Program-made: the position numbers and the translations under genes
Assembly: GCF_003334385.1 (NCBI RefSeq)
Contig: NZ_QOWN01000035.1
DNA: 44,545 bases
Reading direction: 5' to 3' (one strand)
From: Escherichia coli
GTDB lineage: Bacteria > Pseudomonadota > Gammaproteobacteria > Enterobacterales > Enterobacteriaceae
Part shown: positions 6,918 through 39,040 of the stretch, piece by piece
Layout: every line of letters begins with the position of its first letter
Position numbering within the stretch: position 1 is the stretch's first letter
Notes under the pieces: model-generated
What the model was told of the DNA's origin: nothing
Seen by the model: only the letters and a program-made list of their open reading frames with translations
The model's database searches: none

Positions 6918-7040
<123 letters not shown>

Positions 7041-8671: not shown

Positions 8672-12062
<3,391 letters not shown>

Positions 12063-12070
<8 letters not shown>

Positions 12071-13196
12071 CCCGATCCTGTCCTGGCGTCGCGTACGGGC
12101 GCTGTGCGTTAAAGAGACGCGGCAGATCGTTCGCGATCCGAGTAGCTGGCTGATTGCGGTAGTGATCCCGCTGCTACTGCTGTTTATTTTTGGTTACGGC
12201 ATTAACCTCGACTCCAGCAAGCTGCGGGTCGGGATTTTACTGGAACAGCGTAGCGAAGCGGCGCTGGATTTCACCCACACCATGACCGGTTCGCCCTACA
12301 TCGACGCCACCATCAGCGATAACCGTCAGGAACTGATCGCCAAAATGCAGGCGGGGAAAATTCGCGGTCTGGTGGTTATTCCGGTGGATTTTGCGGAACA
12401 GATGGAGCGCGCCAACGCCACCGCACCGATTCAGGTGATCACCGACGGCAGTGAGCCGAATACCGCTAACTTTGTACAGGGGTATGTCGAAGGGATCTGG
12501 CAGATCTGGCAAATGCAGCGAGCGGAGGACAACGGGCAGACTTTTGAACCGCTTATTGATGTACAAACCCGCTACTGGTTTAACCCGGCGGCGATTAGCC
12601 AGCACTTCATTATCCCCGGTGCGGTGACCATTATCATGACGGTCATCGGCGCGATTCTCACCTCGCTGGTGGTGGCGCGAGAATGGGAACGCGGCACCAT
12701 GGAGGCTCTGCTCTCTACGGAGATTACCCGCACGGAACTGCTGCTGTGTAAGCTGATCCCTTATTACTTTCTCGGGATGCTGGCGATGTTGCTGTGTATG
12801 CTGGTGTCAGTGTTTATTCTCGGCGTGCCGTATCGCGGGTCGCTGCTGATTCTGTTTTTTATCTCCAGCCTGTTTTTACTCAGTACCCTGGGGATGGGGC
12901 TGCTGATTTCCACGATTACCCGCAACCAGTTCAATGCCGCTCAGGTCGCCCTGAACGCCGCTTTTCTGCCGTCGATTATGCTTTCCGGCTTTATTTTTCA
13001 GATCGACAGTATGCCCGCGGTGATCCGCGCGGTGACGTACATTATTCCCGCTCGTTATTTCGTCAGCACCCTGCAAAGCCTGTTCCTCGCCGGGAATATT
13101 CCAGTGGTGCTGGTGGTAAACGTGCTGTTTTTGATCGCTTCGGCGGTGATGTTTATCGGCCTGACGTGGCTGAAAACCAAACGTCGGCTGGATTAG
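12063..13196 (+). CDS. ybhS: ABC-2 type transporter permease, 377 aa
   Basis: Multi-pass membrane protein after an N-terminal soluble region; overlaps the ybhF stop; K-12 order ybhG-F-S-R. Confidence 0.85.
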
Positions 13197-21281: not shown

Positions 21282-22271
21282 TTAGCCGCCAATGTACGAT
21301 AAGTTTTGCGTAATACCGGTGTTGTTTTGATGCAGGAAATGGGTCTGTTTCTTCTCCCGCAGCGCCGCTGAAATACGCGCTTCCAGCGCCTGTTGCTGGG
21401 TATCGTCTTCCAGCAGATCGCGCAGGTTAACGCCGCCTTCACCAAACAGGCAGAGATGGAGTTTACCAATGGAGGAAACGCGCAGGCGGTTGCAAGTGGC
21501 GCAGAAGTCTTTTTCATACGGCATGATAAGGCCAATCTCTCCGGCGTAATCTGGATGGCAAAAGACTTGCGCGGGACCGTCGCTGCGTTGACGTAATTGG
21601 TGGATCCAGCCGCGACGCAGTAGCTCGTCACGCAGAACCTGACCAGAGATGTGATGCTTACGGAAGAGCTCGCTGCCCTCGCCCGTTTCCATCAGTTCGA
21701 TGAAACGCAGCTGGATAGGGCGATGCTGGATCCAGTTCAGAAAGGTGTCGAGCTGGTGATGATTAACATCACGCATCAGCACGGTATTGACTTTGACCTT
21801 CTCAAAACCGGCCTCAAATGCAGCATCAATCCCTGCCATGACCTGGTTGAATTTATCCTGCCCGGTAATAGCGTGAAACTGGCGGGCGTCCAGACTGTCG
21901 ACACTGACGTTAATGCCAGTAAGTCCCGCATCGCGCCAGCTCGCCACATCGCGTTCCAGACGGTAACCATTGGTTGTGACCGCAATCTGGCGGATAGCGT
22001 CGTTTTCCCGCACAGCGGCGATGATATCGGTAAAGTCGCGGCGTAAAGACGGCTCTCCTCCTGTCAGGCGCACTTTTTCGGTGCCCAGACTGGCGAAGGC
22101 GCGCGTAACCCGGCGAATTTCATCGACGGTAAGAAAGCCTTTATTGGTGACGCCGCTCGGTTTGTAGCCATCCGGCAGGCAGTAGGTGCAACGAAAGTTA
22201 CACACATCGGTAATCGACAGGCGCAAGTAGTAAAACTTACGCGCAAATGCATCAGTCAGTTGTGAAGCCAT
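21282..22271 (-). CDS. moaA: GTP 3',8-cyclase (radical SAM), 329 aa
   Basis: CNFRCTYC radical-SAM cysteine motif and C-terminal Fe-S cysteines; start taken at [19 protein letters not shown] (ORF 21282..22352 is N-terminally extended). Confidence 0.9.
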
Positions 22272-22275
22272 GTAC

Positions 22276-22420
22276 ACCTTTCCAGATACGGGAGGCGAAG
22301 TCATTTCTTCCTTCGCCCTGGTGGCAATCTTTACGAGCATTGTCACGGCCAAAGCACCGTATCAGTTGACCCAGGTGCAGAGGCTAGAGTGTTTAGTGGT
22401 TATGCCGATACTAGCGTGTA
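22276..22420 (-). ncRNA. Probable Moco riboswitch in the moaA 5' leader
   Basis: Placement from established knowledge that the E. coli moaABCDE leader carries the Moco RNA motif; I have not verified the conserved structure by folding, and the boundaries are approximate. Confidence 0.4.
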
Positions 22421-23626: not shown

Positions 23627-23740
23627 TGTTTATGCCGGATGCGGCGTGAACGCCTTATCCGGCCTACAAACCGCGCAAATTCAATATATTGCGGAGAAAA
23701 TGTAGGCCTGATAAGCGTAGCGCATCAGGCTGTTTTCCGT
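23627..23740. repeat. RIP-type BIME (second copy)
   Basis: gccggatgcggcgtgaacgccttatccggcctac ... caaattcaatatattgc ... gtaggcctgataagcgtagcgcatcaggc; same orientation as, and nearly identical to, 6918..7040. Confidence 0.65.
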
Positions 23741-32125: not shown

Positions 32126-32612
32126 ACAGAGCATTAGCGCAAGGTGATTTTTTGTCTTCTTGCGCTAATTTTTTGTCAAACACATTACGTCGTTTGCTGA
32201 ATTTACAACCATGCTCAGTATCTCGATAAGCGCAGAGAAATGATGCAATGGTGGGCGGAATGGCTTGATGGGAAGGCTGAGTAATTAATCTTTAATCAGA
32301 GGGTAACAATGCATGGCTCAGTGAACTAAGCCAATCATTTGTGATCTCCAATTGTTAATCTTATTAGTTCTAGATACTTGATTTATGCCATGATGCTTGT
32401 AGATTAGAAAGCAGTAGACTATACAACACTGCGGTCAAATAATTATCAAGCATAATCACGGTATACACATTTTTTTGATAGCGTAAGGATAGTGAGCCAT
32501 CGATGCCATATTCAATATTTATGCAATTTAAGCATGGTTTATATACACTAATTTTCTTAGTGCCCACAAAATCTTTGATTGTACAAAAAACACAGGGGTA
32601 ATGGAGATTTTT

Positions 32613-33779
32613 ATGTTTGACGGATTTAATGGCTTTTTAATTGCTTCTTTATCGGTGATTACTTCACTTTCTGTTGCAAGAATATTTGTCACAGAAACAC
32701 ATTTATCACCTATCAAAGGAAGGAGTGAATCAATTGATGGGCTTAGAGGATTTCTTGCTTTAATGGTTTTCCTTCATCATTCCAGTTTCTGGTGGCAATA
32801 CATACATACTGGGGTTTGGTCTGATCCTGATTCGTTATTTTATACTAATATTGGAAAAATAGCTGTTATTTTCTTTTTTATGATTACAGGCTTCTTGTTC
32901 TTCGGGAAATTGATTTCGAATAAATCAGTAAATTGGGAAGATTTATTTTGGTCAAGAATAATGAGACTAACACCTATGTATCTGGTTTCGTTATCTCTAC
33001 TATTCATAATTGTGTTCTATGTTTCTGATTGGAAAATTAACACAGGAATTGACAATCTCATAATATCTATGGCGAGATGGGTTCCTTTTTCTTTCCTTGG
33101 AATGCCTGATGTTAACGGTCTTCACAAGACGTCGCTTATCATGGCCGGAGTTCCGTGGTCACTTGTTTATGAATGGTTTTTTTATTTATCTCTTCCTTTT
33201 ATGGCTTTTATAATGAGAAGAGACAAATTTAATACTTACACAATTCTTAGTATTGCGAGTGTATTTGCTTTTATTTTCTATCCATCATTAAAAATACATA
33301 TTTTATCATTTGTTTTTGGTTATCTGGCAGCAAAAATAAATCACAAACTGTCTAACGGCTTGCCTTTCAATAAAATATTATCAAGCTTATTCGTCATCGT
33401 TATCTTATGTGTAACTTGTTTTTTAATTCCAAATCCTTACAATCCAATAACAATATCACTCTGTGGTATTGCATTTATTATGATATCAAATGGATGCGAT
33501 ATTTTTGGAGTTCTTAAGATAAAAACCTGTCAAGTTTTTGGAGAAGCTACATATAGCATGTATCTTCTACATGGCATTATACTTTTTATAACATTTAAAA
33601 TAATACTTCCGGTTAGCTATGTTAATCAAATTAACAGCCTTGTATTTTCAGCTATTATTATAATCCTCTCTGGGTTTATCACGCTTATATCATTACTATG
33701 TTTTAGATATATTGAGACACCGTGTAGTAAGTTTAAAAAATTTAATGTACTAACATACACAAGAAGAAAACTTCAGTAA
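32613..33779 (+). CDS. acyltransferase-3 family membrane protein, probable O-antigen O-acetyltransferase (Oac-like), about 388 aa
   Basis: About 10 hydrophobic segments and the AT3 motif R...HH (IDGLRGFLALMVFLHHSS); very AT-rich; sits between the tailspike and att like serotype-conversion genes of P22-like phages. Start at 32613 preferred (GGAG 6 nt upstream) over 32601. Confidence 0.7.
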   Translation: MFDGFNGFLIASLSVITSLSVARIFVTETHLSPIKGRSESIDGLRGFLALMVFLHHSSFWWQYIHTGVWSDPDSLFYTNIGKIAVIFFFMITGFLFFGKLISNKSVNWEDLFWSRIMRLTPMYLVSLSLLFIIVFYVSDWKINTGIDNLIISMARWVPFSFLGMPDVNGLHKTSLIMAGVPWSLVYEWFFYLSLPFMAFIMRRDKFNTYTILSIASVFAFIFYPSLKIHILSFVFGYLAAKINHKLSNGLPFNKILSSLFVIVILCVTCFLIPNPYNPITISLCGIAFIMISNGCDIFGVLKIKTCQVFGEATYSMYLLHGIILFITFKIILPVSYVNQINSLVFSAIIIILSGFITLISLLCFRYIETPCSKFKKFNVLTYTRRKLQ

Positions 33780-33838: not shown

Positions 33839-36175
33839 TCAGATTGGATAATTACTTACTCTAACATCAGCAAAACTAGTTGTTCCTGTCAAGGAAATAT
33901 CCATGCGTTCATCACAAGCAGGAGCAAGAAAAACCTCTACAGCTACACATTCTGATCTTTTAACATGATATATTGCCTGACGCTCAAGCCACGAATTATC
34001 AGATAATAATTTTATTGCAGTATTAGATAACGAATTACCTGTAGAATCCAATTCGCGAAAAATGACCGCCGATGATATTGATGTTTCTGATAACGTCCAT
34101 AGTCTTACATAGACAGCACTTCGTTGAGCTACTCGAAGTGTTGCCACTAATAAACTCTGTACTGATGCGGTATTCTTATCGTTAAGAGTGAATGCATAAG
34201 GCGTACCTACAGGCTTTGTAGTTGCATCTGTTTTCTCTGGCGCAATAGATATAACAGTCTGAAAAAATCTATCCTGATTAGCTAGAATATGACCAGCTAT
34301 GGAACGCATCGGTAGAGGGTTAGTACTATGGACAGCATCACTTCTTCCAACACGAAAACCACCGCCTGTATTCTGGCTATTGGCAGTGATAAATACGTCT
34401 TGGTTATTGTCTACAAACACTTCACCTGAACACGAACTAGTTATGATCTTACCTACAGAGTTAAATCTTGGTTTTATCTCTTGATTGTCAATTCCGCTAA
34501 TTAGTCCAGGCACAAATTCGAATGATACACCAACACCGTTACAGCTAACAGCCGTGATATCTTCAACGTTGATGTCATACCCATTGACAATGCGTACCGC
34601 ATTATTGTTTACCCTTTCGGCATAGACATTTTTAATTCGAATGTGCTGTGATTGGAAGTATGTAGACTCAGAAGGATACGAGTAATTAGTCACGAATATA
34701 CCAGCCAAGCCAGCCACACTGGTTGCTGCAGCAACATACTTTCCACCAAGAACATCAATATTCTCTCCTTGAATTTCAAGAAAATTTTTAGTTGCTTTTG
34801 ATTTTCCTGTTTGAATTCCGATATTGCCAGCAAGGAATACACCACGGCGTGAACCATCCGTAGAGTGATGGCAATCGTTCATGTCGAATGTTTTGCATGC
34901 ATCGATAACCCAATTTTCGCAACCTCTCTTAAAGTCATTCAATGTACGATGGCCGAAAGCAGTGTTGCCGAAACTGAAGATGTTTTTAATGGTATATGTA
35001 CCGTATTCGCCAGGTGAATCAATAGAGCCATTCATACACTTAAATGCATTGAATCCAACAGCGGTAAGCATTGGGTCTGTTCCCTCTGATGAACAATACA
35101 AATAATTAATACCATCAATCATTCCACCATTAGTTGTGTATCCTTCCCATGCTTCATGTGGGCAGTTTTTGAAATGACATCTTAAAGCAGTAATATTGCG
35201 ACCAATGGCACCGTTATTGAAATGCCAGCAGAATGCGCGAATAATCTTCTGCGGCGCAATGTTATTTATTTCGTAACCGTCTTGGTATTGTCCATCAAAA
35301 CAAATATCCTGCAGCATCGCAAAATATAGATCCTTGTCAGGGTTCTTACGGATGAACCAAGAGTAATAGCCAAAGCCATTATTCTCAACGTCTTGCTTTG
35401 TTAGTGAGATTGGTCTGATAGTAGTACTTGACTTACCTGCACCAATCCAATGAAACCAGTCGCCAATTTGCACACTACCACTAAACGAGATCACATCTAT
35501 ACCTCTAAAATCTAGAGGAACCCTTTTATATTCTGATAATATTTGTAATTTATTTATTACCGATGCGCAGTCAACTCCGCTCTGAATGTAGCGACTGCAC
35601 ATGATCGCATCATTGAAATTAGAACCATCCATGACGCATAACCATTGACTATTAAGATTTGGATTTTCTGTTGGCGCTACAGTTTTCGGAAGGGAACCAA
35701 GCCATTGGTAATAAAGTCCATCAGTGTATTTAAGGACCTGTTTTCTATTGGTAATAGTATATCCAGACGCAAAATCGCCATCAATTATTCGACTGTATTC
35801 TGATATTTCGAAATTTCCCTTTGCCCACAAGGAAAACTGATCAGGATCATACTTCAGAACATTCGGAAAATAGAACTGCTGCGCTCCATATGCATCATAA
35901 ACAGCCATCGAATGACCTTGCACAGTTACAAACTTGGCAATCTGCCCGTTATATACAGGATATCCAGCAGCGTTAATGATGATTGGTTGCGATACAGGAA
36001 CATGAGAGCCGTCTTCGTTCTCCACATAAACCTGGATCTGGTTTTCAGTATTTACCGGATCAGTGTCAATTTTTCCGATATAAATCTTTCCATTAGCTAC
36101 GGCTTTAAAAGAACGAGCCATAGTGAAGAGTTGCGAAGGCATGCTTACCACAACATTTGCGGTGATATCTGACAT
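33839..36175 (-). CDS. tailspike protein: P22 gp9-like N-terminal head-binding domain plus divergent receptor-binding domain, about 778 aa
   Basis: From the second ATG (GGAG 7 nt upstream): [42 protein letters not shown]...[15 protein letters not shown]...LKYDPDQFS closely resembles the P22/HK620 tailspike N-terminus; the remaining ~650 aa are divergent and AT-rich. Confidence 0.85.
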
Positions 36176-36270
36176 TTCATTGCTCCAGACGAATGATATG
36201 ATGCAACCATGATGTGATTGCATACCGAAATGGTACTATTGAGTATTTATCCAGTAGGTTACGATGCCAT

Positions 36271-36288
36271 TCCACCCAACTGGTGAGG
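36271..36288. promoter_or_regulatory. Imperfect palindrome, candidate Mnt operator in the tailspike/mnt divergent region
   Basis: tCCACC-caact-GGTGag resembles the half-sites of the P22 Mnt operator (TCCAC...GTGGA). Inference only. Confidence 0.3.
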
Positions 36289-36296
36289 CATCAAGG

Positions 36297-36557
36297 ATGT
36301 ACAGCAAATACGACGAGGCGCAGTTTCACTTGAGACTTCCGCATGAACTCCACGCGAAAATTAAGCAGCGTGCGAAGATGAATAACAGGTCGCTGAACTC
36401 AGAGATAATTGCAGCGATGGAGGAATCATTGGATAAACAAAGCTCTGCATCAGTTTACATTGACGATGCAGAGCGTATGGCAGAACAACAATCTGATATG
36501 GTTAAGAAAATTGTCTTTGATACGCTCAAGAAGCTATATAAAAAAGACAGCAGATAA
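36297..36557 (+). CDS. mnt: Mnt-like ribbon-helix-helix repressor, about 86 aa
   Basis: QFHLRLPHELHAKIKQRAKMNNRSLNSEIIAAMEESL...NDAERMAEQQSDMVKKIVFDTLKKLYKK aligns with recalled P22 Mnt (HFNFRMPMEVREKLKFRAEANGRSMNSELLQIV...DAERLADEQSELVKKMVFDTLKDLYKK). Start at the internal Met preferred; the ORF could begin at 36264. Confidence 0.8.
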   Translation: MYSKYDEAQFHLRLPHELHAKIKQRAKMNNRSLNSEIIAAMEESLDKQSSASVYIDDAERMAEQQSDMVKKIVFDTLKKLYKKDSR

Positions 36558-36646
36558 CCATCCGTTACGGAGGATTTATGCACAGAGATATGCTGAATAT
36601 TGCGTTCTACATATTTGGTTTTTACACGTTCCTGGTGTTTGCGAAG

Positions 36647-39040
36647 CTATTCTGACAGCGCATCAGACTTAGCCCCCTGAGTCAGGGCGTTAATGGCCTT
36701 TTGTGCCTGCTGCATGGCTTTCTCGAACGCTGTTGATCCGCGTGGGGTGTTTGCCATTCGGAGCATTGCATTTCTGAATGGCTCGCTCTCATAGGCGCGA
36801 GTAAGAAGTCCGTAGCTTACCGCTGCGCCAGTTGTCGCAGGGTTCATTGCCGTCCCATACCCGATAATGAACGGGATGGTTTGCTGCCCTGTTGGTGTTG
36901 TTACTGCCGCTTTTGCAGCCTGCTGCGTGGATTGCAGGTAGTTTTTCAATCCTTTCAGATAAGCAGCGTCCTGCCCCTTAAATGTGATGCCAGTCTGGTT
37001 TTGCAGGATGTTAAGCTGCCGAAGGAACTGGTCAGGGGATCCGCCAGATTTCTCCATCGCCTTTCCAATGATGCCATTGCGCATTTGCGCCCTGCCAACA
37101 CGACCAACTGAGTTATACAGCGTCTTAATTTCCGATTTGTTCTTGCTGAATAGCATGTTGTTGACAACTTCCGGCGTCAGATCGCCTTTCATGAGAACAT
37201 TCTTCAGCCTGGTATTCTTTAGTTTCGCGGCTTCGTCAGCGTAGACGGCATTGGCCTGCTGATATTTACGGAGAGTATCGTTGCCAAGATTCTGACCAAT
37301 GGCACCATTGATATCGTCGGTCATTGCCTTGTAAACGCGCTGAATGGCAGCATCGGAACGGTTTGGTAACACTGGTCGCTCACCCTTCACGTCCATTCTG
37401 AACTGGCTGCGCAGATCGCTTAATTGCTTCAAATCCAGATTTACCGGACCATCAGGACCAGCATTGCGAACAAGCTCATCACGATATGACTGAAGTTTTG
37501 AAATTGTCTCGTTATCAGCGACCTTACCAAGCTTCTGCAGATTAGATATTTCTGTATCAATCTGCTGAATTGCTCGCGCTGGCTGAATGTTTACTCCAGC
37601 CATAGCATTCTGAACCTGCTCCAGTCGATTACCGGCGGCACGACGAATTCCTGATGTTTTCGCTTTAAGGCTGTCAATAACAACCGCTGGATCATACTCA
37701 CCGAATTTATCGGCAAATCTCTGCACCAACTGGCTTCTCGCTTCCTGTTGCGTTGCTCTCATTCCGCTTGTGCCAGCCAGGGGGATATTTTCTGCTGTAG
37801 TCTGCGCCATTTTCCCGACGCGGGAAGTAGGCTGTAACAGGTCTGTGGTGTGCAGAGGAACTCCTTCACGCTCTGCAAACCTGATAGCCTGTTGAGCTTC
37901 TGGTGCTATCGAACCACGAACACCACGATAAGCAGAACCTAATCCACGTCCGGCAGCGTTAATAGCACCGCCAGCCAGCACACCAACGCCTAAATCGGTG
38001 GCGAGTGCTTCCGCATCATCTTTCGCACTGTTTGCAGCAAGTGATCCAACTGCGTTTTCTGCTAGAAGGCGAGTTGCCCCCTGAGCAATTCGACCAGCAA
38101 GTGTTGGTGACTGTGTTGCCGCTCTCTCAACGCCAGCAGGAGTGAGGTAAGGCAATGCTTCAGCAAATACCCTTCCCTCTGTCGTTTGTGGAGTCAGCGC
38201 GCCTTGCTGAAGGCCAAAGTCCTGCTCTAATCCCTGCGTTGTTACTCGTGGTGCTGGTTGATATGTACCATCGCCAATGCCGAGTTTACCTCCAGCCCAA
38301 GCCGCCGCGCTTGTTACAGCATCAGTGAGTTCAGCAGGTATGTTCGCTACGTTGATTCCTGCCTGTAGTAAGCCGCGCCCGGTTTCAGCAAGTCCATTAC
38401 CAAGGTCAGACATTATTCCGCCTTGCTGCTGAACAGGTTTCGGTGCGACAGAACTTACGGGTTGAGGTGGCTGCTGACTGGCTGCCTGCTGCTCAATCTG
38501 AGCAAATGGATTATTTGGGTCTGACTGCACGCCTGATGCCGATACTTGTTCGGATGACTGTGCTTCCAGTTGTGCAAACGGGTTGTTAGGGTCTTGCTGA
38601 GGATGTACCTTTGCAGAGGTGGCGCGCTGTTCGACTGTTGAGTCTGTCACCGGGTCACCCGCCCATTGAGCAAAGCGATCATCAACGTAACCGCGGCCTT
38701 CAGATCCTGGCGTATATTCACCACGCTTTGCCTTCATAACGTTGCCGGGACCGTCGTGATAAGCCTGAAGAGCGTCACGCCAGTTACCAAACTGCTGGTA
38801 CATCTTTGCCAGATAGCGCGCGCCAGCGTCAGCCTGATATTCGGGGTTTTGCATTTGCTCATCGGTATAACCCATATCACGCCATGTCCCAGGCATGACC
38901 TGAGTCAATCCTACAGCCCCGGCGGAGCTTACTGCGGCAGGGTTGTAAGAAGACTCCTTGGCACCCAGTGCAGTCATCAACCCTTCTGGCACACCGTAAC
39001 GTGCGCCAGCCTGCTCTAACAAATCACGGTAATTAGCCAT
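36647..39040 (-). CDS. virion ejection/internal protein at the P22 gp16 position, with an N-terminal lytic transglycosylase (SLT) domain, 797 aa
   Basis: N-terminus carries an SLT-like catalytic motif (GAKESSYNPAAVSSAGAVGLTQVMPGTW...YLAKMY), followed by a tandem DPNNPFAQ(L/I)E repeat and a long Ala/Gln-rich region; last gene of the ejection-protein block. Confidence 0.7.
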   Translation of the reverse strand: MANYRDLLEQAGARYGVPEGLMTALGAKESSYNPAAVSSAGAVGLTQVMPGTWRDMGYTDEQMQNPEYQADAGARYLAKMYQQFGNWRDALQAYHDGPGNVMKAKRGEYTPGSEGRGYVDDRFAQWAGDPVTDSTVEQRATSAKVHPQQDPNNPFAQLEAQSSEQVSASGVQSDPNNPFAQIEQQAASQQPPQPVSSVAPKPVQQQGGIMSDLGNGLAETGRGLLQAGINVANIPAELTDAVTSAAAWAGGKLGIGDGTYQPAPRVTTQGLEQDFGLQQGALTPQTTEGRVFAEALPYLTPAGVERAATQSPTLAGRIAQGATRLLAENAVGSLAANSAKDDAEALATDLGVGVLAGGAINAAGRGLGSAYRGVRGSIAPEAQQAIRFAEREGVPLHTTDLLQPTSRVGKMAQTTAENIPLAGTSGMRATQQEARSQLVQRFADKFGEYDPAVVIDSLKAKTSGIRRAAGNRLEQVQNAMAGVNIQPARAIQQIDTEISNLQKLGKVADNETISKLQSYRDELVRNAGPDGPVNLDLKQLSDLRSQFRMDVKGERPVLPNRSDAAIQRVYKAMTDDINGAIGQNLGNDTLRKYQQANAVYADEAAKLKNTRLKNVLMKGDLTPEVVNNMLFSKNKSEIKTLYNSVGRVGRAQMRNGIIGKAMEKSGGSPDQFLRQLNILQNQTGITFKGQDAAYLKGLKNYLQSTQQAAKAAVTTPTGQQTIPFIIGYGTAMNPATTGAAVSYGLLTRAYESEPFRNAMLRMANTPRGSTAFEKAMQQAQKAINALTQGAKSDALSE

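Follow-up and report, generated by a model that had tools for sequence, protein, structure and literature searches.

The window, the whole stretch of DNA analysed here, comprises 44,545 bp of Escherichia coli sequence, of which the segment from 33.8 to 44.5 kb is prophage and the remainder chromosome (bioA, ybhB and others). The prophage segment covers only the late end of a P22-like prophage, and searches for antirepressors and operators were for this reason extended to complete relatives, namely Sf101, IME10 and the prophages of E. coli no107. The chromosomal part carries a Moco riboswitch and naRNA4 and ES036 repeat-derived sRNAs (22259–22403 on the minus strand; 1657–1727, 6963–7005 and 23668–23709 on the plus strand), all of which are ordinary E. 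coli features, and a region identical to the one described here was absent from the complete E. coli genomes. The local gene order starts with an acyltransferase gene on the plus strand (32601–33779), followed on the minus strand by the tailspike gene (33839–36175), which encodes a P22-type head-binding N-terminus (MSDITANVV...) that matches the tailspikes of Sf101, IME10, Sf6 and HK620. An intergenic region (36176–36296) separates this gene from mnt on the plus strand (36297–36557), after which come an unannotated small ORF of 25 residues on the same strand (36578–36655) and, on the minus strand, a gp16-like DNA-transfer gene with a lytic transglycosylase domain (36647–39040), the final late gene ahead of the moron. 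The mnt gene thus sits between homologues of genes 16 and 9, where it is transcribed against the late operon and diverges from the tailspike gene. The divergent region, which the original prediction had put at roughly 120 bp, measures exactly 121 bp.

The 86-residue product of mnt contains both domains of a Mnt-family repressor. Its N-terminal Arc-like RHH DNA-binding domain (residues 7–49) matches the Pfam profile Arc (PF03869, 2.4e-14), its C-terminal tetramerisation helix (residues 57–82) matches Repressor_Mnt (PF11423, 1.4e-14), and the solved domains of P22 Mnt are found as matches in the PDB (1mnt, 1.5e-18, residues 6–78; 1qey, 4.4e-8), which bears out the Mnt homologue that had been predicted between the gp16-like gene and the tailspike. 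Its identity to P22 Mnt amounts to 48.8%. In work by Knight and Sauer, the specificity of Mnt is said to reside in the N-terminal residues Arg2, His6, Asn8 and Arg10. The alignment of both proteins places His6, Asn8 and Arg10 of P22 Mnt at Gln9, His11 and Arg13 of the window protein, whose recognition strand reads Q9-F-H11-L-R13 (QFHLRL type). Since specificity residues are altered (His6 to Gln, Asn8 to His), a changed operator specificity is to be expected, and the protein is predicted to bind its operator as a tetramer and to repress transcription. A longer version of 97 residues starting from the ATG at 36264 is ruled out, since this codon lies within the conserved −10 element, the extension contains an in-frame TAA in divergent loci, and the alignment with P22 begins at 36297. 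The record of Sf101 takes this upstream start for its 97-residue protein, and in IME10 mnt was left unannotated. Mnt also carries a propagated mislabel as 'partition protein ATPase' (Sf101 NC_027398 gp14, P22 NC_002371 mnt, PHROG 795), which is widespread in RefSeq and in PHROG-based annotation.

The region resembles P22 immI in its two-domain Mnt, its position in the late operon, a promoter equivalent to Pmnt and the register of the operator to the −35 of this promoter, but it lacks arc, ant, the sar RNA, Pant, O_arc, sieA and orf59a, and its specificity residues and operator are changed. Searches by tblastn with Arc and Ant of P22, Ant of CUS-3, KilA and Rha of JEP4 and P22AR of E. coli HS revealed no antirepressor module in the window, and the same queries gave no match in Sf101 and IME10, two complete genomes with the same module. 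The sole match to Arc (E = 0.024) falls within the tailspike gene on the opposite strand, and an arc gene of 53 codons cannot fit into the gap between tailspike and mnt. The sar RNA (Rfam RF00262) was not detected in the window; the P22 locus, which served as control, scores 97.8 bits. Likewise, a promoter scan of the minus strand between 35900 and 36900 found no sigma-70-like site facing the tailspike, while in P22, as a control, it located Pant (TTGACA-17-TATATT, 11/12) and Pmnt (10/12) where they are annotated. In the window, the counterparts of the Pant hexamers (ATGGCA-15-TAAATA) are degenerate, lack the invariant final T and differ among intergenic types, and on these grounds, together with the negative scan, we reject a promoter of the Pant kind directed at the tailspike. 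The components of a complete P22 immI region, which are arc, ant, sar and a strong Pant that overlaps Pmnt under the control of O_mnt, are all missing here, with ant searched in the window, Sf101 and IME10. The absence of an arc or ant ORF, as had been proposed, is thus confirmed by tblastn in the window, and the assignment to immI is supported, with a region derived from that of P22 and deprived of arc, ant, sar and Pant.

E. coli no107 (NZ_CP075374, 1549000–1597000) contains a tandem pair of P22-like prophages, both of which have this mnt module. One copy contains many frameshifted genes, and the intact copy carries Tad2 (anti-Thoeris) genes as well as an antirepressor-like KilAC gene, which is situated in the nin region. 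This KilAC gene and a KilA-N gene of the no107 prophage were considered as antirepressor-like genes away from mnt and set aside, since a copy of the operator is absent from their vicinity.

Upstream of mnt, a promoter equivalent to Pmnt is predicted by orthology on the plus strand, with a −35 element TTGAGT (36239–36244) and a −10 element TACGAT (36260–36265), which correspond to the annotated Pmnt of P22 (TTGAGA-17-TATCAT). Its spacer of 15 bp is suboptimal and beyond the range of 16–18 covered by the scan tool. Loci with a 135-bp type of intergenic region display TTGTTG, a 17-bp spacer and TACGAT, and the latter is invariant across all loci of the QFHLRL type. Transcription from this promoter would start near 36272. 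A different plus-strand promoter (CTGACA-17-AATGAT, 36169–36197) was rejected, as loci of the 135-bp type do not preserve it and the tailspike start codons account for its −35; if used, it would leave the operator downstream of the start.

Adjoining the −35 of Pmnt, and centred at about −43 from its predicted start, is the 15-bp sequence ATACCGAAATGGTAC (ATACC-GAAAT-GGTAC, 36222–36236; core TACC-N5-GGTA at 36223–36235, centre 36229), which we propose from sequence comparison to be the likely operator of Mnt. The 17-bp O_mnt of P22 (AGGTCCAC-C-GTGGACCT) ends at the T of TATTGAGA, in which TTGAGA is the −35 of Pmnt, and an alignment on ATTG(A/T)G places 36222–36236 exactly in the register of this site. 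Three classes of recognition strand can be compared in this way: PHFNFRM of P22 and epsilon34 with the operator GGTCCAC-C-GTGGACC, PQFNLRL of L, ST160 and Gally with AGACCAC-N-GTGGTCT, and QFHLRL of the window type, which extends to about 150 loci, with (G/A)TACC-N5-GGTAC. The sites of all three stop 1 nt short of ATTG(A/T)G and have CC..GG at positions ±3 and ±4 in common, and they show symmetric changes at ±5 and ±6 from the centre, with GT..AC for P22, GA..TC for the L class and TA..TA for the window type. Loci of the QFHLRL class retain both arms and vary in the central five bases (GAAAT, GAAAC, TAAAT, TAAAC, AAAAT, GAGAC), and the most divergent among them contain a perfect GTACC/GGTAC palindrome. 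It is this orthology, combined with the covariation with the recognition strand, that points to 36222–36236 as the likely site of Mnt binding, although in the window its arms are short (4–5 bp) and its centre is asymmetric. The core would be expected by chance 0.1–0.2 times per 40 kb. It is present once in the genome of Sf101 and at each mnt locus of IME10 and the no107 prophages, where the only extra copies are one within a portal gene and one within a capsid gene, and the chromosomal part of the window holds another at 9856. No other copy of the operator was found in intergenic DNA of the complete relatives. The search for an ant/arc pair or additional Mnt operators elsewhere, as suggested with the original prediction, was thus negative in Sf101, IME10 and E. 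coli no107.

A different element had initially been singled out, a partial palindrome resembling Mnt half-sites just upstream of mnt (CCACC-caact-GGTG, 36272–36285, plus strand). The palindrome does exist within the 5' UTR of mnt, but it is weak, and its assignment as operator does not hold. The ribosome-binding site of mnt takes in its right arm: the Shine-Dalgarno sequence GGTGAGG (36282–36288) is located 8 nt ahead of the ATG and has GGAG of P22 and GAGG of Gally and ST160 as aligned counterparts. The entire element is placed past the conserved −10, on its downstream side. In divergent loci whose recognition strand is unchanged, this place reads TCCATTAACTGGCG and TCCATTAACTGGCGAGG, with GAGG retained and the symmetry gone, and one divergent locus is devoid of the palindrome sequence altogether. 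Palindromes of this kind with arms of 4–5 bp are expected by chance 0.2 times per window, and a search for other copies, which had been recommended, returned a single one at 12659, consistent with the chance rate. The overlap with the Shine-Dalgarno sequence, the position past the −10, the lost symmetry and the chance frequency together rule out this element as operator, and as RNA its folding is no better than that of shuffled sequence (z = 0.11).

On the opposite side of the intergenic region, the true start of the tailspike gene is the ATG at 36175, which is served by the Shine-Dalgarno sequence GGAG (36187–36184); the ORF of 794 residues that extends to 36223 in the ORF list is merely an upstream in-frame extension. 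A 23-nt inverted repeat on the minus strand (36201–36223) gives rise in the late mRNA to AUGCAAUCA-CAUCA-UGGUUGCAU, a hairpin with a 9-bp stem that ends 14 nt before this Shine-Dalgarno sequence. Four distinct natural transitions in the repeat lead to G.U pairs on the minus strand and C.A on the plus strand, and perfect pairing is restored in two variants. A non-homologous hairpin (CCGUAGC-CAU-GCUGCGG, the 'boundary sequence') is found at the same distance from the Shine-Dalgarno sequence in P22 and in loci of the 135-bp type, where it is 97% paired across 38 variants, with no double compensatory change. On the late mRNA, the hairpin might constitute a processing or stabilising element. As a candidate for the Mnt operator the 23-bp repeat was rejected, since VSe13, JEP4 and loci of the 135-bp type do not contain it despite having the same recognition strand.

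Downstream of mnt, the scan detected no terminator-like site. A hydrophobic ORF of 25 residues (MHRDMLNIAFYIFGFYTFLVFAKLF) starts 20 nt past the mnt stop codon, is preceded by a strong Shine-Dalgarno sequence (GGAGGA, 36569–36574) and shares 9 nt with the 3' end of the gp16-like gene, which is encoded on the other strand. It is probably co-transcribed with mnt. About 70 of 80 related loci preserve the ORF intact, with third-position changes, and it is also found, unannotated, in Gally, 683R2, 720R6 and, at the end of gene 16, in Sf6, which has no mnt. No match was obtained in PHROG, and the exact sequence is absent from a collection of 15 billion proteins. Its product may be a small membrane protein that the prophage expresses.

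The organization of the locus is shared with IME10 (NC_019501), with a DNA identity of 96.4% over all of 36003–36800, and with Sf101 (NC_027398), with the same value over the first 70% of this segment (to about 36565). In both phages Mnt is 95–99% identical and the intergenic region of 121 bp, the operator and the hairpin are the same as in the window, whereas the receptor-binding parts of the tailspike differ. Sf101 differs also by a longer homologue of gene 16 and the lack of the 25-residue ORF, and its mnt is annotated between genes 13 and 15. In Sf6 and HK620, the flanking genes are as in the window but mnt and operator are absent. A layout in which mnt diverges from the tailspike gene in the absence of arc and ant is found as well in ST160/SE1, Gally, VSe13, L/ST64T and the Proteus phage Brookers. 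The mnt-only morons of ST64T, ST104, L and Para1 resemble the window in the placement of mnt between homologues of genes 16 and 9, in its orientation against the late operon, in the absence of arc, ant and sieA, and in a palindromic operator that abuts the −35 of Pmnt. They are distinct in their PQFNLRL recognition strand and AGACCAC-N-GTGGTCT operator, compared to QFHLRL and TACC-N5-GGTA in the window, and in an intergenic region of the 135-bp type in place of the 121-bp type with its own hairpin. The genes downstream of mnt also differ, with the 25-residue ORF in the window, a convergent orf62 in L and a lipoprotein in Brookers. Two further features emerged from JEP4, E. coli HS and 16 IMG/VR loci. 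Morons of the JEP4 and HS type contain a second module on the gene-16 side of mnt, in which an HTH repressor gene diverges from genes for Rha/P22AR and KilA. A further RHH class (..RFNIRLP..) is found beside a perfect 16-bp palindrome, TTGGTTCTAGAACCAA.

Such loci are known from the literature. Villafane et al. (2008; PMC2629481) count ten types of 'ant moron' in sixteen genomes, describe those of ST64T, ST104 and Para1 as mnt plus one unknown gene only, report none in Sf6 and also draw the prophages of E. coli B7A and HS. Phage L is described by Zaworski et al. (2020; PMC8022706) as mnt-only and genetically without immI function. The question of whether such a gene is a remnant or repurposed is thus already in print, for the 'ant moron' and for phage L respectively. 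Literature on Sf101 with Mnt and the Kapi1 preprint contained nothing relevant. The arrangement of an orphan mnt is common in prophages of E. coli and Shigella, occurs in sequenced phages and has been described previously; it is ordinary and of little weight as a discovery.

At least 80% of 36000–36560 is carried by 245 of 5426 complete E. coli genomes, and the cluster of Mnt at 90% protein identity has 681 members. Among the 80 closest loci in IMG/VR, 70 have the 121-bp intergenic type. A further group of about 70 loci shares the recognition strand but not the C-terminus, and here mnt nearly always sits 129–135 bp from a tailspike start. Over these about 150 loci the distance is nearly always 121–135 bp, and none has arc or ant as neighbour. 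All of the 80 sampled copies of mnt are intact, with a uniform length of 261 nt and an invariant QFHLRL recognition strand. Across 55 distinct alleles, pS is 0.091 and pN 0.013 (pN/pS 0.147), with a lower ratio of 0.107 in codons 1–50, which encode the DNA-binding half. The gene is under purifying selection and not decaying, and the cassette as a whole is for this reason not simply in decay. The decayed immI region that had been offered as one explanation of the locus finds no support as far as decay is concerned.

Collectively, these properties lead us to regard the locus, with a probability of roughly 60%, as a minimal 'ant moron', in which the immI region of a P22-like phage (Lederbergvirus) would have been reduced to an mnt cassette whose product binds ATACCGAAATGGTAC and regulates its own expression, without acting as a switch for the tailspike. 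The Mnt tetramer would be made in the lysogen and occupy the single site at 36222–36236, from where it would regulate the leftover transcript of mnt and the 25-residue ORF. The tailspike itself would be expressed by read-through of the late operon, which would traverse mnt in antisense, then the operator and the conserved hairpin, and enter the ribosome-binding site of the tailspike gene, and bound Mnt together with converging transcription from Pmnt may incidentally damp this read-through. Local autoregulation of mnt and the 25-residue ORF is thus the most likely role that we would assign from the sequence. Regarding the proposed repurposing of Mnt, it is the local binding and autoregulation that appears most plausible, whereas control of the tailspike through a promoter is not upheld, with none found that faces this gene. 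Still, autoregulation on its own fails to account for the selective retention of mnt, and the 25-residue ORF cannot be the general reason for keeping it, since the downstream genes differ between mnt-only phages.

Another proposal, which we consider possible though clearly not the leading one, takes the QFHLRL Mnt as a stable orphan repressor that may have acquired a new job; in the about 150 loci it is without any linked antirepressor and nearly always 121–135 bp away from a tailspike start. This job might be to tune late read-through into the tailspike gene, together with the adjacent conserved hairpin on the late mRNA, or to provide immunity in trans against induction by other P22-like phages. 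The second of these functions, taken by itself, is an unlikely explanation. Mnt would here serve as an immunity factor of the prophage, which represses Pant-type promoters of incoming or co-resident P22-like phages with the same operator and thus blocks antirepressor-mediated induction in a prophage without ant of its own, and which would be compatible with local autoregulation. Such a role would fit with the purifying selection on a gene that is missing its target in cis, with the joint conservation of operator and recognition strand, and with the existence of P22-like polylysogeny as in the tandem prophages of no107. However, neither a Mnt of the QFHLRL type nor its operator was found beside arc or ant in any of the about 150 IMG/VR loci or in 95 phage records, the Rha/KilA-type antirepressor module of JEP4 and HS is equipped with its own HTH repressor, and the KilAC gene of no107 has no operator nearby.

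Control of the tailspike, either by repression of a residual promoter derived from Pant that would now lead directly into this gene or by a roadblock that in conjunction with converging Pmnt transcription would set the level of late transcription arriving there, appears quite improbable. The operator, 47–61 bp ahead of the tailspike ATG, is on the route that late read-through takes, and the spacing between mnt and this gene is stable over many tailspike types (121–135 bp). It has also been suggested, in a passage of PMC2629481 citing Adams et al. (1985), that the ant moron of P22, and with it perhaps Mnt and Arc, may modulate late read-through into gene 9. Conversely, a promoter-like site facing the tailspike is absent, the hexamers in the position of Pant are without their invariant final T and unconserved between intergenic types, a simple loss of arc and ant from the ancestral order would leave the same adjacency, and Sf6 and HK620 produce their tailspike without any mnt. 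That the locus has no function and is what remains of a degrading immI region, carried along between two conserved late genes, is highly improbable, as the loss of arc, ant, sar and Pant, the lack of immI function in the likewise mnt-only phage L (PMC8022706) and the viability of Sf6 without mnt are outweighed by the intact and equally long copies with their low pN/pS and invariant recognition strand, by the conservation of operator, −10 and Shine-Dalgarno sequence across divergent intergenic types and by the size of the Mnt cluster.

Our placement of the operator yields three natural pairs of Mnt and operator that would differ in their specificity and that are open to testing.
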